A stretch of DNA of 62,365 nt, counting the filler, from Hausera hauseri (taxonomy: Eukaryota): NCBI GenBank assembly GCA_046269625.1. It is 12 parts of 12 records of this genome, joined end to end, with 100 filler letters (N's around TTAATTAATTAA, not from the genome) between each part and the next. Parts side by side here need not be neighbours in the genome. Positions count along the whole stretch, not along the records: positions 9,018 to 14,106 come from JBJURY010339380.1; positions 14,207 to 19,514 come from JBJURY010283949.1; positions 19,615 to 27,133 come from JBJURY010009567.1; positions 27,234 to 32,277 come from JBJURY010352931.1; positions 32,378 to 37,791 come from JBJURY010259844.1; positions 37,892 to 42,100 come from JBJURY010699770.1; 6 more parts are not named here. One strand, 5' to 3'. A model generated the notes under the pieces. That model worked only from the letters and a program-made list of their open reading frames with translations. It was not told where the DNA came from and did no database searches. The position numbers and the translations under genes are program-made. Position 1 is the stretch's first letter. Each line of letters starts with the position of its first letter. Positions 4,316-42,100 of the stretch are shown in pieces.

Positions 4316-4374
4316 ATATTTCTATACAACATTTATTGAACAAAGAATAACAAAGAATAACAATATGTACATAG

Positions 4375-9017: not shown

Positions 9018-10690
9018 GGCAACAGATGCAAGCGATTATGGAATAGGAGCAGTATTATTACAGAAGGGTGAAGATGGAAAAGAACACCCTGTGGCCTGTG
9101 CTTCAAGAAAACTTAATAAACATCAAAAGAAATACTCTGTAATAGAAAAAGAGTTATTAGCAGTGATATTTGCCTTAGAAGTATTTTCACCGTACATTAA
9201 TGAAAATAAACCACTTATGATTTATACAGACCATAGACCACTTTAATAGCTAAAACAGCATGAAAATCCAAATAGTAGACTCCTACGATGGGCTCTAAAG
9301 TTACAACCATATACATTGAATTTTCAGTATAAATCTGGCACGCGAAATGCTAATGCCGATTACCTATCGAGACTACCAGATAAAATAGAAACGAAAGCAG
9401 TAGTCGCAGGCACATAGAGTATAAACGGATCAACTGAGAAAATTAAGATGAATCAAGATGAAGATATGGAAATAAGAGCCATTAGGAAATATACAAAAGA
9501 TAAAACTATACCAGTTGACAGAGAATTAACCCGTCACCTGGCGCGATTCAGCGAAGTGTATGAAGGGAAGAAAGGATTTCTATATTTTATTAGTCAAAAC
9601 GGACCTGAATTAGTAATTCCTAAGAAAAATAGAGCAGTTTTATTAACCCAATAACACGATGGATTGCTTGGAGGACACCAATCAGCCAATAAGACATTAA
9701 GCAACTTAAAACGGAAATACTTCTGGCCAACGATAATGAAAGACGTACAAGAATGGTGTGAGAGCTGCAAGTTGTGTGCTACCCCAAAAAACACAGGATC
9801 AAAATTTAAAGCACCGTTAAAGGTATGGGATAACTCTCAAGCACCATTTGAGTTTACCGCGATTGATGTAACGGGACCATTACCGTTAACACGAAATGGA
9901 AACAAATTTATCTTAGTATTTATCGATTATTTCACCAGATGGGTGGTTGCTTTACCAATGCCCGATATGAAGGCAAATACAATTGCTGAAAGATTTGTGG
10001 AAAACAGTGTTTAACTATGGAGCTCCAAGAATTCTCCTGACTGATCAGGCATCAAATTTAACTGGATCAGTAATGCAGTCCATATATGATATCTTGAAAA
10101 TATTAAAGTTGCGATCAACGCCCGGACATCAGGAGAATAATGGAATGGTTGAAAGGTATATTGGAGATCTGAAAAAAAAGTTACAAACGGTAGTAAATAC
10201 TAGGCAAGATGATTGGGACGAATACATCAATGCATGTGTCTTCGTCAATCGCATATCAGTCCATGAGGCTACTAAAGAAACACCCTTCTATTTAATGTAT
10301 TTGCAGAATGCAAGATTACCAATCGACCTAGATTTTAATGTGAAACCCATTTCACATTTAATGGAAATAGAAGACTGTAAACAGTTAATGCAAGAACGAC
10401 TTCAGTTAGCCTGCAAAATGATTGGCGATAATCAAAAAGATTACAAATTAAAGTATAATAAGTACTATGACCAAAAGACTAAACAGCCTAAAATCAAGAT
10501 AGGCGACCAAGTAATGTTGTATTCTCCAGTAATTAAAAAGGGTAAAACGTCTAAGTTAGACAGACCATATAAAGGACCATATGAAGTAGAAAAAGTAAAT
10601 CTACCGAATATTTGTTTGAAGGAAAATAATACTTCCGTAAAAGTACACGTTAATAGATGTAAGCCCGCGGCCAAGGAGAGCGAATTAAGA
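9018..10690 (+). pseudogene. Ty3/Gypsy pol 3' part: RNase H and integrase
   Basis: TDASDYGIGAVL...EKELLAV...TDHRPL; HHCC finger (H..GGH...CESCKLC); DDE residues (AIDVTG, LTDQAS, NGMVER); GPY/F motif YKGPYEV. The RH-IN order is Gypsy-type. Confidence 0.95.
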
Positions 10691-10759
10691 AAGGGTGAAA
10701 AAGAGTTGGTATGTAGCATTTGTGAGAAGGTAATCGAAACGGACGCAACAAACAAACTA

Positions 10760-12725
10760 CGATTAAAAAGGGTATTGGTACTAATCATCATCTTATTATC
10801 TCCCTTAGTGATAGGATAGATGACGGACCAAGAAGTCGAAAAAGCAAAGCTACGACATGCCACGGCCATAAACGAGGATCTATGGTTGAAAAGCTTAAAG
10901 TATCATATAACGTACTCCACGAAAGGCCAGAAATGCATTACCTGGTATATTACAAGAAGAATGCCTGGCGAGTATATTATAGGGATACGAATAACCCCAG
11001 TCTACGGTTATAAAAGAAACTCTAATGAAGGACATAATGATTGTATTCTTCGTTCATCGATAAATGAAACGCAATGTCCAATAGATACTTCAGGGCCACA
11101 TGGAGTACACCTAACACTCATAAAGAAAAAAGAGGATTATTATTAGTTTATATACCAAATTTCACAGGTATATACGTGTTCCCCACAGACATGAAATGAA
11201 CGAAACACTACTCGATGAAATAATACTCGCACAGCTAAGGATAAGATCAATGGGATTTAAAAGTGGACGAAGCTGTCTCGAAGTAAGGAGTATGATAGAG
11301 TTAGAATATATCCGATGGATAACGATATCCATAAAAGAAATAGGAGGTGAACAAAGATTATTGAAATGCGAATTAACAGATGAACAACAACAAGTTTGCT
11401 GTAACGTAACAAGAGGCAGGATATATGAGGTAAAATACACTCTGTCACGGAAGGAACACGGAAAGCTTAAAAATAAAAGGCATAGAACAGGACCGACAAT
11501 GTTTATACGATATAAGAATCAAAAAGAGTATGATGATATACGAGAAGGGATCACGGCAACACCTGTGCAACTCTCAGCTAGTAATAAAGAGATGACTGTC
11601 CTAATTAAGCCTTACGCTTCTTATTACCGCCAAAAACGTTCCATCTGGAATAACGTAACCATCATAGCAGCTCCCACGGCACTAATCATCTCAGTTAAAC
11701 CAGATCTTGACTTCGTAAAAATTAAATTCACTTGTAAAAAACAAGATACTATAATAGCAAAAGGAATCATAACTCCGGATGATCTGATAGTGCCGTGTGC
11801 AGCTCTAGAATCCGATACGAAATATACGATTATGCTACAGTTATTAGATGCTAACGATAAAATAACCTCTACCAAAGTAATGTCCGCAATCACCAAAGGC
11901 AGCAAAGTGGAATCACAATACAGATTAAAGACAATTAAAAATAAGACAACTAAAAAGCCACAACGAGCAGGATATAAACATTCTCGTTTAGAAATAATTA
12001 TAATAAGTTCAATAACCCCTATAGTAATACTAATAGTAGCAGTAATATTAGTTAAGCTGATACAACGACAACGACACAAGAAAAGACAGAGCTGGGTACG
12101 AATCAACTTACGTGAGCTAACGAATTCGTTAGCCACCACTAGTCCCAGCTGACGGTGGAGTTTAGGGATTGCTATTAATGCAACCCTTTTAACGAAGATA
12201 ACCACAGGTCAACAGGTTACCTATAGAGATAAATCAAGTTATAAAACTACAACGATTACCATGGCATGTCTGATAACCGTTGTGTTGCGTGTAGATATTC
12301 ATATTAGCTCGCAATTGACATTTCTATTTACAGTGTCGTCCTCAACCTTTCATCAAGTCCAATCAATTACCAGGTCTAAACACTGGTATAGTAATGCAAA
12401 AAACCTCATAATCAACACCAATCCAGCTAATCAATATTATACGATACAAAACGATCATACAACCAGTTTGAATTACCCACTGACACAAATCCCAAACAGT
12501 CTAAAAGGATATAGTATGGCTGACAGGTCTCTAGCTCTAATGCAGATAACAAAAGCCACATCACTATATCTAATAGACATAATGATTCTTCACGATCGAT
12601 ATCACTCTATAAACATTTATTGTATAGTCGGTCAATTCCATATCAAAACAACAGCTAGAAAAACATCGATAAAAGGTGATCTTATTAATATGAACACTAT
12701 TCTTTTATCCAACAAAATCTATTAA
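10760..12725 (+). pseudogene. Retroelement-borne type I membrane protein (signal peptide, FN3-like ectodomain, TM, cytoplasmic extension) in frame with integrase
   Basis: Hydrophobic VLVLIIILLSPLVIG ends the integrase ORF; TAG at 10817-10819 is followed by an in-frame continuation. Several NxT sequons, an RQKR site and an FN3-like LESDTKYTIML motif. TM LEIIIISSITPIVILIVAVILVKLI is followed by a basic stretch. ORF 12261-12725 is in frame after one TGA. Confidence 0.6.
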
Positions 12726-12814
12726 AAATACGATCCCTTACCAATCGTCTTATATTAGCAATCGAAGTGATAAAGAAAGAAAAATTTTAGCCAAGTGTAC
12801 CTAACGGAAAATGT

Positions 12815-13555
12815 TTGGATCTCCCAGAGCCTGATTACGTAAAATATAGAACAATTCCTTATAGACGTATTCAGAATGTCACAGATAACGATCTGGTCAT
12901 AGCTGCCGTTAATTTGGCCTATGACCAGTGGAATCAACTGCAGCCTATCGAAATATCGATTATAGACTTATATGGAAATACATTATTCTACAGCATCGTA
13001 TCTCCTCGCCAACGTATAAATAACTTCGACAGTCACATAACCGGTTTGGTCGAAACAAATATTGTCAATCAAATGGATCCCCCGGACGTCTACCGCAAAG
13101 TGACAGAAATATTAACCGATAAGATTGTTATCGGGGCCGATGTGGTCGAGATGATCGTGAATTATTTCAAGTGTCCCATACGCCGAATAGCCGGAGTTCG
13201 TGATGTCTTACATCACGAAGAGGTTATTCGGAAATAATAATTGTCAAATAACACTTTCAAAGAATTAGCCCGCAAATTTTATGATTGAAAGGGCTTTCCA
13301 TTACATAGCACCGCTCTGGTGCAATGTTACAAAACAATTTATCGCCAACTTAAATGGAACGACGAACTAATCTTAACTAACACGGCCTCCGATAAGGTGC
13401 GAACAGCACCCATAACATCCACATGTGGCAGAAACAGAAAGGTACAGGTCGATGTAACCGTGGTCATCGACGAAGTATATGAACCGGAATCTATTCGATA
13501 CAAATCTCGATCAACCGGTAAATTCGTCCACGTCCCATTGAGTTTAGATCAGTAA
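12815..13555 (+). pseudogene. REX4/ISG20-like DEDDh exonuclease fold, catalytic residues apparently substituted
   Basis: EISIIDLYGNTLFYSIVSP...NFDSHITGL...KIVIG...FKELARKF...HS follow the REX4/ISG20 pattern, but the ExoI DxE position reads NLA. ORFs 12815-13237 and 13319-13555 share one frame. Confidence 0.6.
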
Positions 13556-13588
13556 ATTCGGGGCAATTTCTTCAGTCCCCCATGAAGC

Positions 13589-14106
13589 TGTTTGACTGAC
13601 AGCTGTGACTCCAATTGAAAAAAATTAATAATCTCCTTAACAATCCAACAGATATTTATCGACTCATAAAACAACCCAACGAACATTTATCGATTATAAA
13701 ACAGCTGATAACCGACAGTATTAATTAGCAGAAGTGTGATTAAAATATGGTGTATATTAATTTTTATTACGATAACAGTTGTTTCATGTGTAATTATTGG
13801 TGATCAGAAAAACTATATATAGATTGATGATTAGAGAAATTTTTGTGAATTTTTGAATTTTTGAATTCATTTTATGATTTTCGACGTTTGAATGACATCA
13901 CGTAAGCCTATGTTATATTTCTTTGTTGTGTGTGATAAATATTTCAATATATAATTATTTTGTTTAGATTATTGTATACTTGTCAATAAATAAGTAAATC
14001 TAAGTAATTGGTCTTTTCTTCCCGTCCAGGTTAACCCTACCTGACGGGAGCCTGTCTAATAAATAGGATAATAAACAATAGTAATTAATTGCTAAGTAAA
14101 AGACTT
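13589..14106 (+). repeat. Putative 3' LTR of the Gypsy element, truncated by the contig end
   Basis: Non-coding AT-rich tract starting TGT shortly after the last ORF, with AATAAA and a hairpin. No canonical PPT and no partner LTR in the window. Confidence 0.3.
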
Positions 14107-14206
14107 NNNNNNNNNNNNNNNNNNNNNNNNNNNNNNNNNNNNNNNNNNNNTTAATTAATTAANNNNNNNNNNNNNNNNNNNNNNNNNNNNNNNNNNNNNN
14201 NNNNNN

Positions 14207-14445
14207 GATGGTAACAATTCTGTATCCAATGGTAAAAGCGGTAGTCTGCCAAACATTAACTCGAATGGCGAATGATTTGTACCCTTTGTAGGTGTTGTAT
14301 TAATTGCAAAAGCAGTGGTTTTGAGATGTAATTGCCAATCTTTCTGGTCATGTGCAACTTTCGTTGATAAAATACCTTGAATGGTCCGATTCATTCTTTC
14401 TACCATACTATTACATTGTGGGTGGTAGGATGTTGTCAATGTTGC
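14207..14445 (-). pseudogene. Gypsy integrase fragment from a different family
   Basis: TTSYHPQCNSMVERMNRTI...DWQLHL...AINTT...SPFELMFGR. Confidence 0.88.
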
Positions 14446-16749: not shown

Positions 16750-17110
16750 CTGACTTCTATTTTGGGAATGACGTCATTTTAATTTTAAATCGAGTATCAT
16801 TTATGTAATATGACGTCATTCTATTTTTGGGTATTGCGATATCATATCGCTACTTTCTATTTTCGATATTGAAATTTCAAATATAACTGTACCGTGACGT
16901 CATGAATATTGAAATTTAAATATAATAATTCGTTTTATTCTCGATATTGAAATTTAATATAATAATTCGTTTCAACTTTACAATTCTGTGCATTTTTCAA
17001 ATTACAATTCTGTGCATTTTGAAATTTAACCTCCAACGCAATATCGCCATCCTCCACTTCCAGCACAATATCGCCATCCTCCATTTTTAAGGTTCACAAA
17101 TGACTCATAT
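16750..17110. promoter_or_regulatory. Cluster of short direct repeats and CRE/AP-1 motifs upstream of a pPolB
   Basis: TGACGTCA at 16769, 16811 and 16895; TGACTCA at 17101; repeated ATATTGAAATTT (x3), ACAATTCTGTGCATTTT (x2) and CAATATCGCCATCCTCCA (x2). Function is inferred. Confidence 0.45.
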
Positions 17111-17302
17111 TCAATCAGGAAAATAAAAATGCCTATCATGGAGGCTTTACATTGATTTTGAGCAAATCATAAAAAGTAAAATATCAAAAGTAGATTATCT
17201 CAATCAAAGTTGTTCACAATCAAAGTTTGTTGCTAATCAAAAGTTGTCAAAGTTAAGTTATCGAGTCAAGTTATCGACAAGTCTTTATTGATAAGTCTCA
17301 AC

Positions 17303-19514
17303 ATTTACCTGACTGGACGTTCTTTCATACCGACATCTGCATCCTTGAAGCAGTCTCTGGCGACTGTGAATGTACAAAATACTAATGACGAATACTGCTT
17401 CAGTTACAGCATTCTGGCTATATTGAAATATGATCAAGTGTCCAAACATCCTGCAAATTGTCCAAAGCAGTACAATAAGTATTTCTCAGAATTGCACTAC
17501 TACGAATGATGGATGCCGATGAAACTCAAAACCATTCCGGCTTTTGAACAGCGTAATCCGACAATAGCAATCAACGTGTTCCAATACAACACAATCGTAA
17601 AAATACCAGTAAACGAAGAGATATACAAAACCCACACGTAGATATAATTTAGCGCAGTCGGAACCCGAATGGACGCTCGGTAAAGTTGTTGCTGTTGGAC
17701 TAAGCAGATAAATTTCACTACGTGGCAGCAACCAATTTGGACAGACTGCTGAACATGGATCACCAACAATTCATCAAAAAGCGTATAAATTGTAAATGGT
17801 GCTTTACATGTCTGCATGGTTTCAGGTCAAAACGACATGGGAAAAACATGTGACACTGTGCAGACAAAATTCATCAGGGAAAACAATGTACGTCATGCCA
17901 GACAAAAAGGAACTGAGATTCATTGACTGGTCGCAAACAGACAGTCCGGCATATGTGGTATATGCCGATATCGAGGCACGCTTACCGCGGCACAACGTAT
18001 GCGACCAAAAGCACATTCCAATCATCGTCGGTATATTGGTTGTTTTAATAAAAGCCGCCGGACAACTGTAATATTACGTTTTTCATGGCTGGAACTGTAT
18101 ACACGATTTCGTGCAACAGTTGGAAACGATAGTGGAAACGGAAATCACACTGTGGTACAGTAACAATAACACTAAGCCCTTGATATGGACAGACAAATAT
18201 GAATCGCTGCTTTTCGCTGCCACCGATGAATATTACCTCTGCCAAAAAATATTGGCTTTTGATACACAGGAACGGCTCGTACCGGACCATGATAATTTCA
18301 CCGGTCGATATCTGGGAGCCGCATGCAACGCATGCGATTTAACAAGGCGATCTTGGTATGCGTGGCGGCATGACATTTGTCAACAAGCATCACGTAACCA
18401 GTGATGATACCACATCACTGTTGTATATTAACATTAATAACCTTTACGGCTGGGCGCTTTCACAACCCTCGCCGTACGGTTCATTCGAATGTATAGTCGA
18501 TAAAGAGGACCTGGACACAATACTGGAAAATCTGTTGAGAGCAGATACGACAACAGCAGAAAACAGCTCAATGGGATACCTGATGGAGGTCGATCTCGTG
18601 GCACCCGATGAGCTGCATGAAGTTTTAGACGATTTACAGGTCGCACCATTTAACTAATGTCTGCCGGGCTCAAAGGTAAAGAAGTTGCTTATGACGCATG
18701 AACTCAAGCAAAATTACATAGTTTATTAGCGTCTGTTGCAATTTTATATTCAGTTGGGTGTATGCGTCACACGAATACATCGCGCAATCCGATTTGCTCA
18801 GGTTCCCATATGCAAGGCGTACATATATGGAAATTTGGAAAACCAGCCGCAGCTTGTAGAAAGTTCGAAAAGGACTATTACAAGCTGAAAAACAATTCTC
18901 TCTATGAAAAGCAATGGAGAATCTGAAAAAGCGGCTCAATGTATGCCTACGCAACAGCGAAAAGCGGCTGGTTACGTATATTAGCAAGGCACAGTTTCGG
19001 CGGTCAATGCACATTGCCGATGGATTGGTTGCGTTGCTGTTAAACAGAGAAGAAGTCGTTCTGGAGCGATTAAGTTACTTCGGACAAGTGGTATTGGACC
19101 TAAGCAAGTTGCGGATGTATGAGCTACGGTATCATGACTTGGTACGTTACCGGCAAATGTTTGACGACAATGACATTTGTATATTTGCCGGTGACATAGA
19201 CAGTTTTTTCCTGCGGCTGAAAAAAGTCAATCGCGAACAGCTACTTCAGCAAATGTAGTCAAATAGATTACTGGACACGTCCAACTACCCACCGGATCGT
19301 CTATTGTACAGTAGCACAATCACCAATAAAATCTTCTGCTTAAAGGTGAAAGTGAATGCAGGGTTCAGTATTGGGAATGGATATTATTACGCCCAAAGTG
19401 CTACAGTCTTCGGACGGACAGTGGACCGAAAATTCTGGCAAAAGGAGTCCAGCTGAGACAGACGGAAATCGGCCACGGTAATTATCGCCGTATATATGAA
19501 GCAGCAGCAGAAGG
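17303..19514 (+). pseudogene. Protein-primed DNA polymerase B (family B copy), 5'-truncated with an internal deletion
   Basis: GRSFIP, DEYCFSYSIL, HYVAATNLDRLL, VYADIE, PDHDNFTGRYLGAACNAC, then directly MRGG, YININNLYG, GDIDS. Confidence 0.92.
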
Positions 19515-27133: not shown

Positions 27134-27233
27134 NNNNNNNNNNNNNNNNNNNNNNNNNNNNNNNNNNNNNNNNNNNNTTAATTAATTAANNNNNNNNNNN
27201 NNNNNNNNNNNNNNNNNNNNNNNNNNNNNNNNN

Positions 27234-28400
27234 GGGTTCTCTCGGTTTTTCAGTCATTGCAATGGTCGATTATCCGTGTATATCACTAAGGGTTTGTTTT
27301 CGCTAATATATGGTGAGAATACTTCTACAGCAAAAATTACTGCCAATGATTCTTTTTCTATTACTGAGTATTTCGTTTGGTGTTTGTTTAATTTCCTTGA
27401 CGCGTATGCCACCGGATGTTCTTTACCATCATTATCTTTTTGTGATAGTACTGCTCCCATCCCATAATCACTCGCATCAGTTGGGTACATGAGGATAGGA
27501 GCGTTTAACAGTTTTTCTTTTAAATTATCAAAAGCCTTTTGACAGTCATTGGTCCATACTACTTTTTCTAAATCCCCCCGTAACAATTCATACAGTGGCT
27601 TGGCTATTTTGCTAAAGTTCTTTATAAATCTACGATAGTAGTTTACTAATCCAAGGAATCGACGTAACTCTTTTACTGTGGTTGGCTTTGGGAAATCTTT
27701 TATCTTTCCTAATAGTCTATCCTGGGACTTTACACCATTTCTATCAAATCGGTGTCCGAGGAAATCCACTTCAGTTTGAGCGAACATACATTTCTTTGGG
27801 TTTATTATTAAGCCAGTGATTTCACATCGATCGAAGAGATTCTGTAAATCTTTCAAGTGTTGCTGAAAATCCGACGATGCTATTATTACATCATCAATGT
27901 ATACCACAGCGTGTGGTGCGTCTAAAAGTAGTAATTCTGTTCCTCGCTGAAATGTTGGTGGTCCATTTTTTAATCCGAACGGCATTCTATTAAATTCCCA
28001 TAATCCTTCCCCTATTGAGAACGCTGTTTTAGGTTTATCTTCCTCTTTTAGCCCCACTTGCCAATATCCCTTTTGTAGGTCAATAGTGGTAAATATTGTC
28101 GCACCATGTAATTTATCTAATATTTCGTCGATCCTTGGTAATGGATAGGTGTCGGTTTCTGTTACTTCATTCAATGCCCTATAGTCTATACAAAATCTCA
28201 TCGTCCCGTCTTTCTTTTTAACCATTACTACTAGTGTAGTCCACGGCCAGCAGCTTGGTCGTATTATTTTATTCTCTCTCATTTCTTTTATAATTTTTCG
28301 AGCCTCTTCCTTTTTGTCGTATGCCAGCTTGTAAAGCCGTTTTTAATGGGCTTATCTTGTCTCTCTTTTAACTTGATAACATGTTGAATAATGTTCATTG
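27234..28400 (-). pseudogene. Ty3/Gypsy reverse transcriptase and RNase H
   Basis: RFCIDYRALN, IDLQKGYWQ, RMPFGLKN, YIDD, FLGH, FLGLVNYYRRFI, TDASDYG, EKE, TDNRPL. Confidence 0.97.
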
Positions 28401-28562
28401 TTCCTAAATCATAATAATTTTGGGCGAATCGACCACTATTATTTTCTAATAGTTGAAGCAACATTTCTTTTTCCTCTTCTGTCAGTGCCGTGGAATTTTA
28501 TAGTTTCTCTTTCCAATTGATCGTGGTGGTTTTCTTTTCCTTATCTTTGTTGGTATTCTATT

Positions 28563-29270
28563 TTAATTTCCTCGACCCCATCTTTTCGATTTATCTACAT
28601 CTGAGATAATCGACTTAGTCTCCTCCTTGGGTATTTCTTCAATTGCCATTATCGATCCGAGTCTGCTATTCCGTTTTAGTTGTTTTTCCTTTGTTCCAGT
28701 GTTACAGATTCTCAAATGGATTTTTTCATCTCTTATTTTATTCGCATGTGGTGTTACTAAAATGTCATATTTATCCATTACGTATGGAGATAGCTCAAAA
28801 TATTCTGACCTTATTGGTAGATTCCTTTCTATTCTACCGTGCACTACCATTTCTGAACGCGGTGGAATAGTAATATCTTCTATCAATGAAACGGCTTCCT
28901 CGTATCGCTTCTCGTTAAAACTTCTAAGTTGGCCCGTCTTAATATCAATATATACGTTATCTAATTGGTGTAATACGTCACATCCCAGTAGTATTTCGTT
29001 CGTTAGATTCTCAGCTACTCTTATAGTGTGGTTTATAATTTGGCCACAAATTTTAATCTTCGCGTCTAGAACCATTTTTATCTCCTCCTCTATTCCAAAT
29101 GCTCCTACATTAATCAGGGTTTCTTCAAGCTTTCGTAATTTACTTTTCAATTTCTTGGGTAACTGACTCCTTCACATTATTGTGGTTATGGATCCGGTGT
29201 CTATTAAGTCAAATAGTGGATACCCATTTACTTCTATTTCTATTTCTGGTCTCGTATACGATCGGGCTTC
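28563..29270 (-). pseudogene. Retropepsin (aspartic protease) followed by a dUTPase-like spacer domain
   Basis: LIDTGS catalytic motif and ILLGCD, then ITIPPRSEMVV...LRICN...RLG. One in-frame TGA at 29172-29174. Confidence 0.88.
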
Positions 29271-29654
29271 GTTCTTAGAACTTACCTTACATGTCGCTTC
29301 GCGATTATATGGTATAGGATTTTCGTTGTAATCCTGTTTTATTCTTAAAATTTGGTACGTGGGGTACATTCCCCCATGTCTTACGTACTGGGGGGCTGAT
29401 GGGTTCATCGACAATTGGTCACTGTAAACTTGTCCATAGTACTCTTCCGCAGGATTTAGTTGTGGTAAATCGGTAACTAATTTCCTTTGATATTTTTGCT
29501 TGTGGGGTTTCAACGGCAATCTTTTAAGTCCATCAATATACCTATTGCCTTTAAATCTAGTGTCTAAGTTGTCCTCACAACTTCTTCCATTCAGGGTGCT
29601 GTAAGGTGAATTATTGTCAGCCTCGTGGTTTCTTTCTTTTGATATTTTCCTTTT

Positions 29655-31490
29655 CTATTTCGCGTCATGATTTGGTAAAAAGCAACTAGCTACTGCTGGT
29701 ATCACCGCTATGAGGATTTTACAAGAACATACCATAGCTGCATGTATACCATACGCTTTACCCAGCGCAGTGAATATCGTTCATAAGGCACTGATAATAA
29801 AATATATAGCCAAGAATCCTGATGCTGCCTGACCGAAGTATAAAAACTTCCCCCACATCTTTTCCATCACGTTTTTTGTAACCTTCTTCAGATAATCCTT
29901 TCCCATTAAATTCGCCCAATGTGGGAAACATTCTCCATCCCACATTACTTTTCTTGTTAGTTTCGTTAATATCCGTTGTCTCTGTTGAGGGAACAATAAC
30001 ATCCTTCGATAATCTTCTACATTTTTTTGCGTGTACATGCCTCCTTAGGATATGCCAGTTAATGGTTCGAATTTCTGATTTCTTTGTAAGTTAATTAAAC
30101 TTAAAGTTTCCGGTGTTGCTACTTCTTCTCTTTTTGGCATTCTGAACCACTTGTCATTTAGTTTAAACATTGGTGGCATATTAAAAGTACAATTATCCAG
30201 TTGCATGGGTTTCGCCCTAGCATCTAATAATATGCGGGTTACCGGTATCACATACCGAGGTTCCATATTATAATTCACTGGCAACTCTGAGGTGCATTCT
30301 TCAGTTTCTCTGATCGCTACCTCTACCTTTTTACATTCAATCGTTACTAATACCTCACCCATCACTCGCCCAATCACTCCTTCTCCAAATGGCATAACCG
30401 GGGCCACCATATCTGGATTCGTTATCACCAACGCCATCTTGTTACGTATTATTTCGTAAATCAATTTACATTCGTTCAGTATTATTTCCCTATATAAGTT
30501 TCGTATTTCCCTTCAAACGTAATTAATCAAATAGTCTATTTTATTATCGAAGTATTGTGTTAATTTGATATCTTTCTTGTCAATTTTTGTTTTCGCCTCC
30601 ATCACCTCTCTCTATAATTGGTCTTGAACATTTGTTCATTACATCTATTGGTCATTCCCATAATTCTTAATCGCATCATTTCTTTGGGGTTTTGTGAGTA
30701 TACTACCGTTGCTACTTCCGTCATTTTTACTTCTTTAACTCCTTCTCTGTAGGTTGCTGTTTCTTTTTCAGCCGTTTTTCCAATTGTTTTGTTAAATTTT
30801 CCTTCTTTTAATAACGTCAAATGACATCTATTTGAAGATGTTTCCCAGGTCATCTTAAATTTTCCCTTATCACATTCACCATTCTCGTATTCACATTCAC
30901 CCATTATTGTCATGAATTTTGTTTGTGAATCGAATAATCCTTCGTATTCTTTTAATTGGACCTGATAATCTTCAATTGCTACCGTTCTTGAAGCAATGGT
31001 GCCTCCAACATCATAATCTACTTTTTTACAGGTGCCTTCCATCGTTTTATCTATTCTTCCTGCTCGAAAAATCCGAGTATACTTTATCTTACCTCGTACG
31101 GCTGGTATCTGAGCATTCTGTATTGTTATGACCCCGATTTTAAAAGCGTCTTGACATTCTGTCCGTGATATTATTATTGGCTCAAAAGGAGTTGTTGGTT
31201 CGATAATTGCGGAGTTTCCTGAGTAGTATACACAGTTGAATAAAAAAATGACTTCTTTACATAACACTCCCCAATTTTGACCTTTATAAATTCTGATTCC
31301 TGATAGACCCAATACCTGTGACCACTAGTTGTTGTTAATTGTTCCGGGTCCGCTTCAGGGCATTTCTCTAGATCAATTAAGAAATACTTTTGTTCTTCTT
31401 TTGGCTTTGAACAATCATAAGCCATTATTCCCATAGCTTTTGGCATGCAAATAGATGCTATTAGTAATATTAGTAATATTTCCATAAAGG
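29655..31490 (-). pseudogene. Env-like class III fusion glycoprotein (chuvirus G / herpes gB-like) embedded in the Gypsy element
   Basis: Signal peptide ILLILLIASICMPKAMG, then IMAYDC...LEKCP; ISRTECQ; GEVLVTIECKKVEVAIRETEECTSELPV...PVTRIL; GGMYT...LLFP; C-terminal TM GFLAIYFIISAL. These motifs match chuvirus-like glycoproteins. Confidence 0.82.
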
Positions 31491-32277
31491 ACATTCCACC
31501 CAAACCTTGTTTACTCATGCTTGGTTGTGTTGTGATTGGTCTTTCCGGTATTTCCCCTTCTGATCTTAATCTGCCATTCATCAGACTAGGTATTTATCCA
31601 CCTATACACGGTACCCAATTTCCTAGAGTATCACGCAAAATTTTAACAGTCACCTTTATATTCCGTTTGATTTCGTCCAAGTTCTGTGTTTAATAATTAA
31701 TAATGATCACTTTATATATCATGTAGGCAACGGCCGTAATAACCTTTTCCCGTGTGATCCCTGTGGAAAACATCTCCAATATATTTTGCTCATGGAGTTC
31801 GTTAATTCGTTCTTCATTAATATTTTCATAAAATTGTCTGCTAATTCTTAACATATTATTTCGTAGCGTCTGCAACAATTCGTCAGGGATAGCAATTTGC
31901 ATATCAAACGATGCAAACGACGTATGTAGTTTTGCTAGCAGCGTTCGCAACAAGGGATCTATATTTACTGCTTCTGGTATCGTATCCGTTTCTGTTAATA
32001 ATAATCGTCTTACGATTTCTTCGTTCCGATCTTTTTTATTGCAAGTGTCACTTATTTTTGTTCCCTTTGACCTTTCTTTCATTCAAGCTTCGATCTGCAC
32101 CATGACATCTTGAGTGCCACCCAATAGCTGTTCTTCCGCTATTCGGGGTTCTACCTCCCTCACTATATTAGTTATTGTTTCTTCCGCCCTTGTTTCTGGA
32201 TGTATTTCAGTTATAGTGATTGGATTATAGTTCTCGCTTCGACACCCAATTCTTAATAGTTGATTATAGCTGTATAA
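31491..32277 (-). pseudogene. Conserved unknown domain X preceding the glycoprotein
   Basis: EEIVRRLLLTE...RTLLAKL...IKVTVKIL...WVPCIGG*IPSL, in the same frame as the G signal peptide. Homologous to 39267-39993. Confidence 0.6.
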
Positions 32278-33099
32278 NNNNNNNNNNNNNNNNNNNNNNN
32301 NNNNNNNNNNNNNNNNNNNNNTTAATTAATTAANNNNNNNNNNNNNNNNNNNNNNNNNNNNNNNNNNNNNNNNNNNNAAATTCATTCAAAATGTTTGTTT
32401 TGACCTCATAACTTCCGAACAACACGAAAGTAACTATGAGCAACATACTATCGTCTGCTCATTATCCTGGTTTCTGTCAGCTCACATAGCTACTGAACGT
32501 CAAACACATGTCCAGTCATTATTTCATCTGTAAATTTCCGAATTTCACTCTCAATGTACTCTTCCATTTAAGTTGTAATATGTAATATGGTTGATATGTT
32601 TATACCTGAGTAAAAGAAATAATTTAGTGTATATCAATTTATTAAATAATTGTACTTAATGTTTTCAATTTAAAGTTAATAAGTTAGTGTATATAAATTT
32701 ATTATATAATGGTATTTAATGTTAATATTTACTTTAATTTGTTTAAATTTAGAAATGTAATCAATATCCCACGTATTGCGTCTCTCGCATACATGAGGAG
32801 GCAGAAGATGATGCTAGTGCATTGCTCCATGTATCCATGTTACTGTACAAGTAGAGTGCCCAACGTTGATGGTTGCCATAGTGCATTGGAGCAATACTAT
32901 GGCGCCACAACGGTGCACGGTAAACGGGCCTATGTATGTCCCGGTTGTTCTATAGTTGATAATGAAATCAACTATGAATAATTTTATAATGAGCACAAGG
33001 GCCAATTGAACCAGTTTCAGAGGTCCAAAAAGGAAGTATTAATGGAAGCAGAAAAAAGCAGTATTCCCTCAACAAGCAGGAAACTTCAAGCATCAACAA

Positions 33100-36000
33100 G
33101 CCTTGATGAATACATGCAAAGCAGAAATACAGAGCATCAGCAGCAGAAGCAGCAGCAGCAGCAAGAACCGCCCATTACTGTCAAGTACGATCTAAACAAA
33201 TATAAGTATAAAAGTAAACATGTCGGTGAAATCAGCAACTGAACTGAGGCACATACCCGCTCATGTGCGCAACCGCTTAGAAACCGAAGTAAAGAAATTC
33301 AAACACCACAACTGCAAAGCGCAATATTATGTACTTGCAGAATTTGAGAATCTGCAAGCTGACAGGAAACAGTGGTACCTGTCACATCGAGCAGTTCCAT
33401 ATTCCAAAGATTTCATTGCCGACTTAGGCGAAAAGCTGGACGAAAAAATCGCCAACTACACCGAAAAGGACAGTGGTTGGCGAATAATAAAAATTGTCAC
33501 TCTCGGTTTTATTATAACAAAGTCGAGTGACATAATTTACCTGTCCGGACGTTCATTCATACCGACACCTGAAGATCTAAAGCACTCTTATGCTGTAGTG
33601 AATGTAAAAAATACGGACGGTGATTACTGTTTTATTTACAGTATTCTGGCGGTATTAAAATATGACGAAGTGGGCAGACATAGTGAATATCGTCCGAGTC
33701 AGTATCGGCAGTATTTTTCTGAATTGCAATTCAACGAAAACTGGATGCCGATAAAACTAAAAACCAATCCGACACTGTCAGTCAACGTGTTACGGTAAAT
33801 TACAATAGTTGAAATACCGACAGACGAAGGAATTTACAAGAATCCACATGTGGATATAATCTATCGAAGACGGAACCAGAATGAACGCACAGTAAATTTG
33901 TTAATGTTAAACCAGGCAGATACATTTCATTACGTGGCCGTAACAAATTTGGACCGACTGCTGAACATGGATCACCATCAGTTTGACCAAAAACAAATAC
34001 GTTGTAAATAGTGTCCTGCATGTCTGCATGGCTTCAGATCAGAAACCACGTGGGAAAAACATGTGACGCTGTGCAGACAGAATGCATCAGGAACAACAAT
34101 GTACGTCATGCCAGTCAAACAAAAGTTGAGATTTAGTGACTGGTCTAAAACGGACAGTCCAGAATATGTGATATGTGCTGATATTGAAGCAATCCTACTA
34201 CAGCACGACGTATACGATCAAAAACATGTTCCATTTGCCATCGGAATGTTGGTTGTCCCAAAAAATCTGCAGGTCAACCGCAGTATTACATGTTTCACGG
34301 CTGGAACTTAGTGCATGATTTCCTGCATCATTTGGAAACAATAGTTGAATCGGAAATCTCACCGTGTTATCGCAATAACAGAACAAAACCCCTGATTTGG
34401 ACAGATGAAGGTGAAAGTTTGACGTTTGCAGGCACTGAGGAATGTTATCTGTGCCATAAAATATTACCGTTTGACGCACAGGAACGACTCGTACCGGATC
34501 ACGACCATTTTACCGGTAGATACTTGGGAGCAGCACGTAAATCATGCAATTTACCGAGGCTAGTGCGGCCAATCCTACCAATGATCTTTCATAATTTCCG
34601 AGGTTATGATTGTCACCATATACTGAAATGGGCCATCAACGGATTTCCGTACTGGGAACTGTCCATAATCTCAACAATGGATAAGTACCTGTCCTTGTCA
34701 GCACGCATAAACCGGTTCCAGATACACTTCCTTGATTTATTGCAATTTCTCAATGAATCACCGGCGAAGCTGGTAAATGTCTTGTCGGATGAGCCGATAA
34801 CCTCAACGCAGTTCTCTACACATATTGAACGCAGCAAAGGTACATTTCCATATAACTTTGCAATATCATATGAGCGACTCCGGACAGCAGAGGAATTACC
34901 GCCGCAATGGACAGGCATCACAGAACTTAAATATCAGAGAGCACAAGAATCTTGGACAGATCTCGGCTTTAAAAACATGTTGGATTACATGCTATGCATC
35001 TTAAACTGGACGTATACTTATTAGCCGATGTGTTCCAGGCGTTTTGAGCGAAAGCGTTGGCTGAAGATAGGCTGGAGCCACTCAACTTATATTCCATACC
35101 AGGAATGAGTTGAGCGTCAGCTCTAATGTCACTGGATCGAGATATTGTGCTGCTACAAGACCCGCAAATGTACCGGCTGTTCAATGTTAGTATTGGCGGC
35201 GGCATGACATTTGTCTACAAGCACCAGGTCAGTGCTACCGATACCACATCACTGCCATATATTGACATTAATAACCTGTATGGCTGCGCACTTTCGCAAC
35301 ACTTGCCGTACGGTTCATTCGAATGGGTTGTCGACAGACAAGATGTGGACTACATAATAGTCAAACTACCACGAGCAGACATGGCAGGCTCAGTCGGATA
35401 CCTGATGAAGGTCGATTTCGAGATACCAGACAAGCTGCATGACGTTTTGGACGATTTGCCGTTCTTACCATTTAACCAATGTCCATAATGCTCAAAAGTG
35501 ACGAAACTGCTCATGACGTATGAACCGAAACTGAATTACGTGGTCCATTGGCGTCTGCTACACTTCCACATGCAGCTCGGTGTACGCGTCACACAGCTGC
35601 ATCGTGCAATCGATTTGCTCAGGCTCCCATATTCAAGGCGTACATAGATGAAAATTCGGAGAAACAAGCCGCAACTTGTACAAAGTTGGAAAAGGACTAC
35701 TACAAGCTGAAAAACAATTCTCTGTGCGGAAAAACAGTGGAGAATCTGAAAAAGCGGCTCAGTGTACGCCTATGCAATAGCGAAAAACGGTTGGTCACCT
35801 ATACAAGTAAGGCGCAGTTTCGGCGGTCAATGCACATTGCCAATGGATTTGTTGCGGTGCTGTTAAACAGAGAAGACGTCGTTCTGGATCGGCCAAGTTA
35901 CATAGGACAAGTGATATTGGACCTGAGTAAGTTGCGGATGTATGAGCTACAGTATCGCGATTTGGCACGTTACCGGCAAATGTTTAATGGCTGCAATATT

Positions 36001-36332
36001 GACATAATTGCCGGTGACAGACAGTTTCTACCTGCGGCTGAAAAACATCAATCGCGAACAGCTACTGCAGCAAATGCAGTCAGGTGGATTACTGGACACG
36101 TCCAACCACCCACCGGATCATCCGTTGTACAGCAGCGCGATCACCAATAAAATCGTTTGCTTCAAGGATGAAAATAAAGGTCTTGTCCGATATCGGTAAT
36201 GGATATTTCTACGACCAAAATGTCATAGCCCTTTAACCGACTGTGGACCGAAAACGCGCGCCAAAAGAGTCAAGTTGAGACAAACGCAAATCGATCACGG
36301 TGATTATCGCCGTATGTATGAAGCAGCAGCAG
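33100..36332 (+). pseudogene. Protein-primed DNA polymerase B (family B), near full length, C-terminus missing
   Basis: DSGWRI, GRSFIPTP, DYCFIYSIL, HYVAVTNLDRLL, CADIE, CYLC..DHDHFTGRYLGAA, FHNFRGYD, KGTFPY, YIDINNLYG, YYKLKNNSLCGKT, FKDE. Confidence 0.93.
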
Positions 36333-36804
36333 ATGAAGCTGCAGAACAGTTCAGCTTATCTTGCAGAGATCCAATAAGTTTGCATGTTCCACCTCTCCCT
36401 TTCTTCTCCCCGCTACATATGCTCAGTGATAAGGTCCCATCTGGTGTGACTGGTAGGGACAGAGGAAGCTTACTTGGTGGGAACTCGGGGAGGTCTAGAA
36501 CTGATGGAGTTATAGAAGAATAAATTGGGATGACATATGAAAATATAAGACCGGAAATAGTAGCCCAAAACAGATTAAACTGCTTTTACCCGTCCCCACG
36601 GAAGAAAACGTGTTTGAAACAATAATTTACTAATATTTTTAAAATATTATCAACTCGAACTGATAGAGAAATGGATAATAAGACGAATCCTCAATTTAAA
36701 CACCACCCGCTACGCAACCCATGTCTTGGAAACAATTTAATCCGTATTTCAGATGTAGATTTTTCGGACTGGTGATACTCAACCCGCATAAAAAAATAAC
36801 TAAC

Positions 36805-37105
36805 CCCTCCTGGATCTGTAAGACCAAATGTGTGATAGTTAATCGTGTTAGGATAGTAAGCAGTGTGTCCTGTCTGGCTGGCATGAGCTGTGTACATGTA
36901 CATAGGACTGGAACCCGACTGTTGTGGCGATGGTGAATTCTGCTGAGAGGGCGACGAATGTGAAGCCTGAACAGCAGACGTTGGTTGTAGAAGGTGCTGA
37001 ACTGGATGCTGTTGGTGCATCATTTGAGATGATGTTGTTAATTGTGAAGGTGACATCTGCAACCTCTGCTGACTTATCTGCCCAGTTAAACTCTGTGCCA
37101 TATGA
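36805..37105 (-). other. Probable exon of a host gene (Q/S/P-rich low-complexity region)
   Basis: Open frame SQQRLQMSPSQ...HQQHPVQH...PSPQQSGSSPMY ending at a GTTAGT donor-like site. No recognisable domain. Confidence 0.35.
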
Positions 37106-38659
37106 GAATCTATATAGAAAAACAATGTACAGTTATAAACATTCGTATATACAATATATGCACACATATAACTTCCAGCAAGTTACCCAGAAACCCCTGC
37201 AGCTACTCAACCTTCTTTAAAGGCAGTGGACTCAGTTCTTCTTTTACTACCCTGTAATGTCAGCAGCACGACCAGCTACTGTGATAGAGGTTGCTCACAT
37301 GTTCACTCACGCTGTCTACCAGACGACTGTGACAACAGTTTACACACATGTTTTTTCAGTCATTAACCAATAAAATGTGGGGCAGCTTTAGCTAGGGACA
37401 GGTCGCCTAATAAGGAGACTGTCCCTGGAAATGAGATGTTTGATCACCCTAATCTCAGTTCTGGTGTACTGGATTAATCCTCTACATACGGTAAGTAGAA
37501 TAAAAGTAAGAGATTTGTATATCTCATAAAACCTGCAACAGATAACACAAAACTGTTACACAAACCTACTCAGTTCTGATGTTGATCTCAAACTAATATA
37601 CCAGTTTCAATTTACAAATCACATGATAAAGTTACAAAAGTTTTACTCTTCTGTTGGAATTTAAAGCAACAAAGGTAGTTCTTTTAGACTCCACACTCAA
37701 AACATCTGTATTACTCAGTCTTTCCTCACCCATGATTGATCTTTATCAGATAAGAATCCGAATCAGCTTTATTGCCGTTGTCAATGAACATNNNNNNNNN
37801 NNNNNNNNNNNNNNNNNNNNNNNNNNNNNNNNNNNTTAATTAATTAANNNNNNNNNNNNNNNNNNNNNNNNNNNNNNNNNNNNNNNNNNNNAAACTATAG
37901 TCTCCGTTTCCTGTTTTCAGCTGTCTAATAACCAGCAGCCGGTGTGGTCTCCTGCTGCTGTAGCTAATCTGCTTCAAGGATCAGCATGTTGTGCATTCAG
38001 GGATATTATTTTTCATTACTCGAGCGACTTGTCGTTTCATCATCTTCAAGCAGTCTGTCTGTTCTGACATCAACAAGTCATTGTCATACCTTACAACTCG
38101 ATGTTTCCTCATTTTCAGACCATTCCCTGTAAACTCGAGGAACAGTTGTGGTATCTGTGTAGGCAAGCCAGTTTAGACGAGCCTTACGATGAATCAGGCT
38201 TATGGTCTGAAGAAGCGGAGCTGGGGAGAGAAACTCAAAGCTTTCAGGGAGTTTGAAGTCTTTGGAGTTGTGAGATTGATGTTCTGTGGGTTTGTATGTT
38301 GTTTGAATGCCCAAACAGAAACACTCCTTCCCAAGCCGCCCCCCTACACAATTGCAGGGGTTGGTTTGGAGTAAGTGTTTAAACTGTTTTCAAAAATTTG
38401 AGGCAGGGAATTGATCTTTCTTGATCCTTTTTCCGCGTACGTTACTGATATAAACGTCACCTTCATCTCTTCCTTCCACGAAAGCTTTAAGTACGATTTC
38501 TCTTTTGGTTGGTATTAATACATCTTAATAATATAATACATCTTAATACAATACGTAAATTGTAGAATTGAGAGCAAGTGAATTGGACTTGCGAATCAAC
38601 AAAGAGATTCCACGCTTGGAAACGGCAGCCCAAACTAAAATTTTGGGGCAAAATTTCTG

Positions 38660-39266
38660 CAGTTATTGATTCGCCGGTATCACATGCTTTATTATAGTAG
38701 TCACATTCAGGGCATGTCATCATTATTCCAGGTGATAGTTCAAAAAGAGCATCATATTCTCTCAGCTCGACTTGGTAATCTTTAATGGCTACTACATTAT
38801 CCAGAATTTCTCCATTTGCATTGTAGGATTCTCCCTTACAATAGCATGTCTTATCAATTGATCCGGCTACGAAAATCTTCTTGTTGATAGCTTTTCCTTT
38901 TTGAGCCTTTAATCGAATGCTTCTGATTTTAATGTTTTGTCACGAAAGCTTCTATACACATTTGTTTACTTATCGGAAGTGGTTCGAATGGGATGGTTGG
39001 CTCTACCATGGCTGAGTCGCAAATAAAGTGGAAGTAGTTTTTTCACACAAAATATTCTTTCACTTTAGTTTTTACAAATTCTGATTCTTGATAAACGTAG
39101 TCTTTATTGGTTACTGTAGTTAATGATGTCAGATTAGCATATGGACATTTTTCTAAGTCTAACAGAGAATATATCGGACCTTCTTTCGCTTGGCTACAGT
39201 CGTAGGCAGTGATTGAAAATGATCTCAAGATGAAATTAAATAAGAAAAGTATGGGAAGAATTTTAA
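38660..39266 (-). pseudogene. N-terminal part of a second chuvirus/gB-like glycoprotein, truncated
   Basis: ITAYDCSQAKEGPIYSLLDLEKCP...YQESEFVKTKV and ECDYYNKACD align with the 29655-31490 glycoprotein. Confidence 0.8.
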
Positions 39267-40349
39267 TTACCCAAGACAGATCAATATCTGACAGTTGATT
39301 ATGTTGTTTTGTTGGGAGGATGGAAGGTTTTCTATTTGTGTCTGAACTACAGGTGCTGATTCTTGTATCGTTGTTTGTATCAAACTATTGATCCATCCTC
39401 CTCTGTACTTTACCCAACCTTCTACATTAACTTCCAATTCTCTTGCGGTAATTTTTATTTTTGTCTCTATCTTCTTGATTTGAGTTTGAACCATTTATCT
39501 CCATTATTTTATACAGGAGATAAGACAGCCGTCACAATCTTACTTCTAGATATACCTGTTCCCATCATTCTAGAGAGTATCTTTCTCTGGTATCTCACTT
39601 GTTCTTTCGTCTGCGAATATGTGCCAATTGCTCACTTATCTTTGCTATTTCACTTTTGATTGTCCGTACTAGTGAATTTGGTACTTGCAAATTTGTATTA
39701 AACTCAACAAAGGTATTGTACATTCTTGCTAACAAAGTTTGTGGCAATGTCGTCAATGAGAAATTACCTGGATCATCTTCAGTTGTTAATAACCTTCGAA
39801 CAGCTTCATCATATCCTGCTTTTCTGTTCTTTAGTTGACAGTTTCGTTGTACCTTTAGGTCTACCTTGGTTTCTTTTATCAATTTGAATCTCTTCTGATA
39901 TAGGAATACTTGCTTCGATTTCTGTTTGTTGAACTTCATGGTGGGGTTCAACTTCTGGCATATCTTTTTGTCTAGATTCAATGAGAATTTCATCTACAAC
40001 ATAAACAGGATCGTATCTGTTTTCTCACATACAAACGTCGTATACATATTCAGAATCTAGCAATGTTTGTCCATAGAAACGTAATCCTAACAATAATTAA
40101 ATTATCGTTATTCATTTTCTGTGATTTTTCGCAGATCTGCTGCTCTTTTAATTCTAAATATAGCTGTTTTAGTTCGGCCACTTTATCTTTATCATCTACC
40201 ATATTCATTTTACACTCTTTAAATTTAGCTCTAATCTTTTGTTGGAGCTTTTCTACTGTATCTTCAGGTTCTGTATCTGTAACTTCGTGTTCATAATCTG
40301 TGTCGGATATATTGCCAATCATATCAACATGTCTCTTTTTTGAATCCAA
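39267..40349 (-). pseudogene. Linker and domain X between gag and the glycoprotein
   Basis: DEAVRRLLTTE...QTLLARM and IKITAREL...WVKYRGGWINSL are homologous to 31491-32277. ORF 40050-40349 is in frame with the gag zinc-knuckle ORF. Confidence 0.6.
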
Positions 40350-40352
40350 CTG

Positions 40353-41070
40353 TCATTTAGTAAGACAGGAACGGGTCATGTGTCCATATTTCTGACATGA
40401 GAAACATAAGGGTTGTCCATCTAGGTTAACCATTGGTTTTCTTATTGCGGATTTTTGAGGTTGACTTTGAAAGGTAACCTTCTTCTGCTGTTGTTCCGGC
40501 TGATTTGGGAACTTTTGAAATGGCTTTTGTTGAAAAATTTTCACTTTTCATCGCTTTTGGGATGCTTTTTTACATTCTCCAACCTTTCATAACTTACTTC
40601 AATTTTTTGAACTTTACTGACAGCTTCTTTATGTGTCAGAATCAGCAACGAGTGTAATTCTGGATTTCTTTATTAACTCCACAACAGAACTGAGCTAAGA
40701 AAGCGTCTTCTCTAATATCTTCATCTACATGGGTTCTCCGAGCCAACTTATGAAGGACATATGCATACTCTTGCACGGTTTTGCCTTTTCTCTGACGTAT
40801 CCTGTTGAAATCTCTAAATTGACCCTTTCCTGACGGGTTTACTAAGAGCCTTTCTTCCAGGGACTCCTTAAGGCTAGCCAATTAATTTTTATCATCATCT
40901 TTAATTTGTGTATAAACTCTGGGTGCTACTCCTTTTAGATGAGGCGGAAGACCCTTTATCCTCAGCTCGTCTGTCCATTCATAGCTATTTGAGTACATCT
41001 CGTACTGCATCAAGAACTCACTATAGTCCTGATCTGGTTTGCTTTCCAATTTGTCCATCGGCAAAACCAT
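40353..41070 (-). pseudogene. Ty3/Gypsy Gag (capsid plus CCHC nucleocapsid)
   Basis: FLMQYE...W...LPPHLKGVA; RQRKGKTVQEYAYVLHKLA (MHR-like); QFCCGV; CFSCQKYGHMTRSC zinc knuckle. Confidence 0.9.
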
Positions 41071-41250
41071 TGTGCCATTACTGCATAAGCTGGTACCTAA
41101 TCCTGAATTGGGTATCCACGGATTTTTTTTCTACTTGGTTTTCGTCTGTTTCAGAACCGGATGGGCTTATCCCCGAATCCATGTTTTCGATTGTTATTTA
41201 TAGCGCACGCTTTACGTTTATTTCGTTAAGAATACGACGCCGATGTGCCT

Positions 41251-41267
41251 CCTCAATCGGGGCACCA
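41251..41267 (-). promoter_or_regulatory. Primer-binding site complementary to the 3' end of elongator tRNA-Met
   Basis: Minus strand reads TAACA-T-TGGTGCCCCGATTGAGG. It matches the vertebrate elongator tRNA-Met 3' end (CCTCACACGGGGCACCA, recalled) at 15 of 17 positions and lies about 180 bp upstream of gag. Confidence 0.75.
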
Positions 41268-41268
41268 A

Positions 41269-42100
41269 TGTTAAAAGTAATGAGAATTACGACCTCAAAG
41301 ATAACTTTATTCAGTTGCTCAAATAGCAACCTGTGGGGTTGCTAAACAATTTAATTAAAAATTTTGTCCCTAATGTATGAGTTTGATACCAGTAGGCACA
41401 CTGGTATACTCACCCTTAGTTATCGATTTTTAGCAACCACACCTTAGTGGCAGGTATACCTAAGTTCGGATCCTTTTATTTAGAATTATTTATCTATTGC
41501 AATACGTAATATTACTTATTAATAGATTTCTTTCAAAAAGAACTGGCAAACCTGTCGAATTTTTAGTGATAGAAATACGAAGAACACATTTAATAACTAA
41601 ATATTTAATGAAAACACTCAATGATTTTTCAGTCAATTTCACTATAAATATGGAACGAAAAACAACATTGAAAATAAAATTTTAATAATTTATCTACAAC
41701 TCAATATCTTAAATAGTAAACAACCAAAATAAATGAAAACATGAAATGAATAATCTTACATCCGTCATAAAATACAACTTTTATAATGAATCGTCTGAGG
41801 TTTTCAATGAAGGATAAAAAAAATACAATCAAAAACAGTTCTTATATACTTCTTTTTTCTAATCACATTGAAAGATCAATTGGATCGATTTAGATTGTCA
41901 GAGGAAATGGAAACTGAACCAAAATCAATTAGATAAAATTATAATCCTCTTAGATAAAAATCAAGTCAATTAAATCGGCTCGGGTCACATCAAATAAATG
42001 ATCAATTTTTATCTAATAATATTGTTAAACTCTTATTAACCCTCTCGACCAGAAATATTGGATCGTTTCTACTATCTTCTCCGTCTAATTTATTCTATTA
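41269..42100 (-). repeat. 5' LTR of the env-bearing Gypsy element (3' boundary defined, 5' boundary not seen)
   Basis: Ends in ...TAACA immediately before the PBS. AT-rich and non-coding, with AATAAA and hairpins. Confidence 0.55.

Follow-up and report, generated by a model that had tools for sequence, protein, structure and literature searches.

Probable Burro-like Ty3/gypsy copies in the Hausera hauseri genome, with a candidate second membrane protein behind integrase

The window analysed here is a 62,365-nucleotide stretch of DNA from Hausera hauseri (GenBank assembly GCA_046269625.1), made up of 13 contigs with linkers of N between them. Three of these contigs carry parts of a retrovirus-like element: contig C (37892-42100, minus strand), contig B (27234-32277, minus strand) and contig A (9018-14106, plus strand). 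We consider it likely that all three are decayed sister-subfamily copies of one Burro-like Ty3/gypsy lineage. In its intact relatives a single frame runs through Gag, a Bcl-2-like domain (X), a fusion glycoprotein (G), protease (PR), reverse transcriptase (RT), RNase H (RH), integrase (IN) and a second predicted membrane protein, the putative surface partner of the fusogen.

Domain content and kinship of the three contigs

Contig C holds the start of an element. An AT-rich region ending in CA (41269-42100) is probably the 3' part of a 5' long terminal repeat (LTR). The CA stands two bases ahead of a primer binding site motif (41251-41267) that starts with TGG and is a candidate for a Met-like tRNA; in the accessible part of supplement 1 of PMC13524379, the tRNA ends sharing their last 9 bases with this site are Met_CAU or 'others'. 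Gag, which follows at 40365-41182 with a capsid-like part and a CCHC knuckle, has lost its open frame to stops and frameshifts. It is 67-71% identical to P0010, an intact relative, and matches the Gag of another relative, P0007 (E 8e-14), as well as zf-CCHC (E 0.016). The linker behind it (39838-40364) has no counterpart to about 197 residues of P0010 (307-503), including a ubiquitin-like domain; the ubiquitin match of P0010 is to PF00240 (473-522, E 0.031). Next come X, a Bcl-2-like helical domain spread over three frames (39348-39837), and an internal signal-like stretch with the N-terminal part of G (38658-39270; PF24664 E 5e-4, 80% identity to P0010). The path from X to G crosses frameshifts, and G breaks off at about 38658, where unrelated DNA begins.

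Contig B takes up the order at X (31570-32028). Here the domain has two in-frame stops and a Pfam Bcl-2 match at E 0.0075, and a profile of the family leads to BOK (E 0.003) and Bcl-xL. An internal signal, the G ectodomain and a membrane anchor near 29784-29849 follow (29650-31503), interrupted by frameshifts and stops. Three successive frames match PF24664 (Monjiviricetes_fusion) at E 5.7e-6, 5e-8 and 1.6e-64, the last of these in the C-terminal half. Homology thus makes G a fusion glycoprotein of Monjiviricetes type and, going by what is known of this Pfam family, a putative class III fusogen. In frame with its C-terminus lie an aspartic protease (RVP E 4.9e-7) and a beta domain (together 28566-29252). 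The beta domain, at 28566-28958, lies between PR and RT, where Burro has a dUTPase-like domain, and matched no Pfam family at E 0.5. The contig closes with RT and RH of Ty3/gypsy type (27234-28342; RVT_1 E 7e-35, RT_RNaseH_2 E 9e-30). In one public sequencing run, possibly of the source sample, 11,040 contigs match contig B and 5,692 of these are less than 90% alike, so the family of contig B is large and diverged.

Contig A supplies the remainder. RH and an integrase with zinc finger, core and GPY occupy 9019-10690 with one frameshift near 10005 (RT_RNaseH E 1e-34, Integrase_H2C2 E 4e-18). The Pol order PR-RT-RH-IN, the gypsy-type RNase H, the H2C2 integrase and the GPY are features of Ty3/gypsy elements. 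A signal-like hydrophobic stretch continues the integrase frame and runs into an in-frame TAG (10757-10819, the TAG at 10817-10819). The second membrane protein extends from 10820 to 12152: an ectodomain with a frameshift near 11124-11143, an RQKR motif at 11628, a domain of predicted fibronectin type III (FN3) fold at 11640-11906, an anchor near 11988-12062 and a short basic tail ending in TGA. Past the TGA the same frame stays open for 190 codons (12153-12722). This stretch is unexplained, with no Pfam family better than E 0.01 and no match to the exonuclease of the relative L001. A frame with stops that resembles a DEDDh-type exonuclease (Exo) lies at 12791-13400, and an AT-rich non-coding end at 13556-14106 is a possible 3' LTR.

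Does the element run from LTR to LTR, as a reading of the sequence alone had proposed? The CA and the primer binding site motif at 41267 in contig C fit the 5' side. A matching 3' LTR is a candidate only: the end of A and the start of C align only at a lenient setting, with a borderline score of 139 that was reached by 2 of 200 local shuffles (the best of 292 other window stretches scored 130), and a scan of contig A at 13201-14106 for purine tracts of at least 10 came out empty.

The sequence-only reading had located Gag, CCHC, X and G in contig C, X-G-PR-RT-RH in B and RH-IN-membrane protein-Exo in A, and all of these were found in place. It had also called four junctions in frame (gag to linker, X to G, G to PR, IN to membrane protein). 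They are, although each is broken by stops here, the TAG at 10817-10819 being one example. Frameshifts are present in all three contigs, and because stops are scattered throughout the window copies, they look like decay.

How closely are the three contigs related? The overlapping RNase H segments of A and B agree at exactly 63 of 74 residues, as counted earlier, and at 68 of 82 across the full overlap. At the DNA level they are 78.8% identical over 222 nucleotides, with 38 codons changed silently only and 14 changed in the amino acid, so the two would have diverged as separately replicating subfamilies. In a tree of 15 RNase H rows A and B are sisters (support 100/100), 83% identical to each other and about 50% to the others. 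Contigs B and C share no blastn match, and B is 38-45% identical in X and G to P0010, the close intact relative of C. A tree of 22 G rows nonetheless places B, C and P0010 in one clade (SH-aLRT 99). Together, the sister link of A and B and the clade link of B and C put all three contigs within one sub-lineage. The earlier proposal that they tile one lineage thus holds for the lineage and not for a single tiled element: these are three decayed sister subfamilies, with a 21% base difference between A and B and nothing shared by B and C in blastn.

That same difference, mostly silent, would also fit another explanation, in which the composite mixes sister subfamilies: B and C would lack the cargo behind integrase, or A would lack G. 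No contig of this genome spans G to the cargo, and none of the listed run contigs spans even B. We nevertheless judge such a mixture improbable. A and B pair as sisters before any other relative joins them, and the ectodomain and exonuclease of A are homologous to those of L001, which bears G, and of its kin.

The polyprotein of intact relatives

Relatives were collected by two protein searches (7 matches among 2,830 candidates and 12 among 2,711) and a metagenome scan that gave three loci, L001 to L003; scans of viral contigs and prokaryote genomes found none. From these came the intact set, 13 frames that combine G, RT and IN without a stop. The relatives' polyproteins are 2,693-4,057 amino acids long and contain one to four protease-like motifs each. 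In P0016, P0017 and P0024 the order CCHC-X-G-PR-RT-RH-IN-signal-ectodomain-anchor is read in one stop-free frame. Locus L001 is open from X to the second anchor, a frame of at least 3,426 codons, and P0010, which belongs to contig C's own family (55-80% identity), is open through Gag, the ubiquitin-like domain, X and G. The fusion glycoprotein (PF24664) sits between X and PR in contig B and after Gag in contig C and P0010. An envelope (Env) gene in frame inside one Gag-Pol polyprotein is open in P0006, P0007, P0016, P0017, P0024 and L003. A single open reading frame (ORF) of about 10 kb with two predicted surface proteins, earlier conjectured from the broken copies, finds support in these intact relatives.

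Two hydrophobic segments follow integrase in 12 of the 13 intact frames, the signal of L001 having been read by eye. The recurrence of this pair argues against a mixture of subfamilies. P0023, an intact frame with G and Pol that lacks the membrane protein behind integrase, is a point in favour of one. The sequence-only reading had named the finding that would overturn it, namely G-bearing elements that never carry the cargo behind integrase; at the level of the lineage this is not what we see, since L001 bears G and has both membrane protein and exonuclease.

The nuclease, tentatively placed in the one frame by that reading, is not part of the polyprotein. In L001 the exonuclease is a separate ORF of 496 amino acids behind the long frame (RNase_T, PF00929, E 1.4e-5), to which the Exo of contig A is 30% identical (E 6e-14). 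Against the Protein Data Bank (PDB), contig A Exo has three matches with E no higher than 10, each of them a DEDDh nuclease, and by homology Exo is of DEDDh type. The acidic catalytic residues are present in L001 and not kept in the contig A copy, which may reflect decay or a natural non-catalytic form. Could the membrane protein and exonuclease of contig A simply be host genes flanking an insertion? Animals do have many proteins with FN3 or DEDDh folds. The cargo, however, has no introns, its membrane protein is in frame with integrase, and it is homologous to cargo in the same place in unrelated intact elements. With L001 in hand the idea is largely refuted and looks highly improbable.

What is X? 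Weak Pfam Bcl-2 matches lie directly ahead of the G signal in contig B (as above), P0005 (E 0.0015), P0004 (0.2), L002 (0.026), P0010 (0.055) and P0011 (0.00096). When a profile of five X rows was compared with the PDB, Bcl-2-family chains made up 59 of the best 60 of 99 matches, the best being BOK at the E value already given. Searched against 1.84 billion proteins, the profile gave 8 matches, including one cellular-type Bcl-2 protein and one repetitive sequence that is probably a chance match. The BH2-like W..GGW end is kept. NWGR, which we take to be the BH1 signature, is not, and canonical BH3 binding is uncertain as a result. By profile similarity X is Bcl-2-like. Ahead of X, a ubiquitin/SUMO-like domain occurs in P0017 (PF00240 E 4e-5, PF11976 E 0.0015) and, as noted, in P0010; copy C lacks it.

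If the long frame is translated as it stands, the polyprotein may alternate between cytosol and lumen, as its hydrophobic segments suggest. It would cross the membrane of the endoplasmic reticulum four times: at the first signal, the G anchor, the second signal and the second anchor. G and the FN3 ectodomain would lie in the lumen and be freed by signal peptidase, while on the cytosolic side the element's own protease would separate Gag, X and Pol. This arrangement would tether Gag and Pol at the membrane that bears G and couple assembly to envelopment. X could keep the producing cell alive for longer, and the exonuclease would have a message of its own and might trim or shield RNA.

Alternatively, the parts could be made separately by splicing or programmed read-through, the full four-pass polyprotein being rare or absent. 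The relative L002 has a lone in-frame TGA (3058-3060) between X and the G signal, in a Gag-X-G frame otherwise open, which could be decay or read-through, and contig A has its TAG between signal and ectodomain. One frame would also yield Gag and Pol at 1:1, a ratio that is unusual among LTR elements. On the other side, internal stops are absent from 13 of 13 intact frames, the X-G junction is read through in P0004 and P0010, and the scattered stops of the window look like decay. Separate production seems unlikely to us.

Several relatives depart from the basic layout. P0002, P0003, P0004, P0005 and P0020 have two to four aspartic-protease-like copies; some lie past integrase, and the intervals between copies hold C2H2 zinc fingers or ankyrin repeats. 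In L001 a further signal-FN3-like-anchor module (4754-5320) shares the frame ahead of RT, flanked by protease copies, and this locus would therefore encode three membrane proteins. Behind its exonuclease ORF lies a coiled-coil-like ORF of 145 codons (12229-12663) with no Pfam match better than E 0.07.

The membrane protein behind integrase

Of the 13 frames, 7 have a repeated unit in the ectodomain behind integrase, marked by two cysteines and an end resembling L-x-P-x-T-x-Y, and four of the 7 lie outside the training set (E 1e-7 to 3e-3). A profile of 14 units from outside the window ranks the contig A ectodomain first of 678 sequences (E 0.007), whereas an earlier profile of five units had reached only E 0.07. 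AlphaFold2, given a five-row alignment of 11640-11906, returned a confident model (pLDDT 88.4) of seven strands with the FN3 F-strand tyrosine present. Among PDB structures, Foldseek places this model closest to FN3 monobodies, Tencon and fibronectin, at TM 0.71 and E 7e-4, and its viral structure matches are weaker FN3 domains. On this confident model the domain folds as fibronectin type III. Units 10820-11143 and 11247-11507 gave no score on their own, so a single FN3 domain is what contig A displays. The contig A ectodomain had no homologue among 1,938 candidates of near length and no useful sequence match in the PDB. Other ectodomains fill the same place in P0006, P0007 and L003, those of the first two being Cys-rich; the slot is thus more conserved than its content.

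What would such a protein do? Our preference, a slight one, is for attachment of the particle to target cells. In the fullest version of that idea the element is a true invertebrate retrovirus, with a class III fusogen and an exchangeable FN3 attachment protein released from one four-pass polyprotein, by analogy with the F and attachment proteins of paramyxoviruses or with herpesvirus gB and its partners. So complete a picture is doubtful. The papers searched hold no report of a two-part entry machine in an LTR retroelement.

A different role is nearly as probable: the FN3 protein could modulate the host from the surface of the producing cell, as a decoy receptor, an adhesion molecule or a block to re-infection, and take no part in entry. 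In the Atlas it comes closest to clusters of cellular type I proteins with FN3 and of cytokine receptors (score 0.85, which is a lead only). The ectodomain varies among relatives, as the Cys-rich forms illustrate, and the remaining cargo (Bcl-2-like, ankyrin and ubiquitin-like) is host-directed. The RQKR motif at 11628, which we take to fit the furin consensus, could permit shedding. Two points speak for an entry partner instead. The signal-ectodomain-anchor slot is kept across lineages that are only about 50% alike in RT, and a single frame would yield equal amounts of the protein and of G, which is what a structural partner would call for. A function of some other kind is rather unlikely.

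A number of observations weigh against the reading we prefer, that of one lineage with two surface proteins in a single frame. Among the relatives collected, no intact element of the A/B subfamily combines G with the cargo. The topology is based on Kyte-Doolittle scans, which show a second, weak hydrophobic stretch after the G anchor and which missed the L001 signal behind integrase that was then read by eye. Only 7 of the 13 intact frames have the FN3-like unit. X can be recognised in no more than 4, its Bcl-2 matches never reach the Pfam cut-off, L001 X has none at all, and the structure model of X from a single sequence is poor (pLDDT 43). Exo is seen in one relative; DNA behind the ORF is available in two, and in one of these it amounts to about 500 bp.

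Published elements and other content of the window

The core layout is already in print. In the accessible text of PMC6431247, the planarian element Burro encodes Gag, a SUMO-like and a BCL2-like domain, an in-frame mononegavirus-like Env and Pol in one polyprotein. Burro/GYPSM1 and the elements described here have in common a Gag with CCHC knuckles, a ubiquitin/SUMO-like domain, a BCL2-like domain before Env, an Env in frame between gag and pol, and the order PR-RT-RH-IN. The likeness extends to ankyrin repeats (P0005, P0017) and to SUMO-like PF11976 (P0017). The differences are of size (4,873-5,140 amino acids in elements of more than 30 kb, against about 9-12 kb of coding sequence here) and of content: MATH, BIR and midasin, all Burro features, had no Pfam match in the 7 full-length relatives scanned whole. 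Conversely, the Burro text as available includes no FN3 membrane protein behind integrase and no DEDDh ORF ('fibronectin' occurs 0 times), and both are present here. Since the in-frame Env, BCL2 and ubiquitin-like domains agree, while size and MATH/BIR do not, we call the lineage 'Burro-like', a comparison by layout and not by RT clade. It follows that 'unusually complex', the earlier description of this element, must be toned down: the Gag-Bcl2-Env-Pol core was published in 2019 (PMC6431247).

Two other systems bear on the comparison. The accessible text of PMC13524379 describes GAG-ENV-POL errantiviruses with an HSV/gB-type ENV in Nematoda, Bryozoa and Platyhelminthes. As in the elements described here, a gB/chuvirus-like envelope precedes a Ty3/gypsy Pol and an ectodomain lies between two hydrophobic segments, and the non-canonical nematode endogenous retroviruses of Sacco et al. 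2022, as cited there, likewise carry envelope before pol. In the main text of that paper, for which accessory domains are outside the subject, the words Bcl, fibronectin, exonuclease and Burro do not occur. Bdelloid rotifers have two LTR elements, Juno and Vesta, with an exonuclease of the DEDD family as an extra ORF behind pol, according to the part of PMC5408684 available. Theirs is DEDDy, in elements without env, whereas the one described here belongs to an element with an envelope and is DEDDh-like (RNase_T, ISG20-like). Replacement of env by a captured nectin3 is described in PMC4299795.

On the portions of these papers available, three features are thus already in print: Gag-Bcl2-Env-Pol in one frame (PMC6431247), the order GAG-ENV-POL (PMC13524379) and an exonuclease carried as cargo (PMC5408684). 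Apparently new, within the literature searched, is the slot for a type I membrane protein behind integrase in 12 of 13 intact relatives. An FN3 membrane protein in that position was not found in a literature search or in word searches of PMC6431247 and PMC13524379; subscription papers, Repbase, figures and supplements may show it.

These observations matter in two ways. The Burro layout, known from giant planarian elements, is here compact and occurs in many lineages about 50% alike in RT, nearly all of which keep the second membrane-protein slot behind integrase. Should the protein be a receptor-binding partner, it would offer a way into two questions about enveloped gypsy elements other than those of insects, their infectivity and their choice of target cell. 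As a decoy, it would add to the host-control modules (Bcl-2-like, ubiquitin-like, ankyrin) that the elements carry much as large DNA viruses do.

The rest of the window is of mixed content. An integrase fragment at the edge of a neighbouring contig (14218-14466, minus strand) is about 40% identical to the Gag-X-G-Pol lineage. Four related decayed copies of one other element (4316-8917, 17300-19514, 25550-27133 and 32378-37791) match protein-primed DNA polymerase B and endonuclease VII; we take this element to be Polinton/Maverick-like. At 55453-62365 a direct repeat of 713 bp, 78% identical, stands at both ends, and the DNA between the repeats contains frames resembling gag (DUF7041 E 3e-4) along with long frames that are unexplained. 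A beta-adaptin gene of animal type (42532-45400, minus strand) has three introns of 41-42 nucleotides; it is the strongest pointer to the host in the window and is compatible with a flatworm, though no proof of one. The stretch at 2397-2951 (minus strand) resembles TATA-binding protein (Pfam E 3e-7) and is broken and free of introns, possibly a retrocopy. An open frame of 458 codons at 22953-24326 (plus strand) matches no Pfam family.

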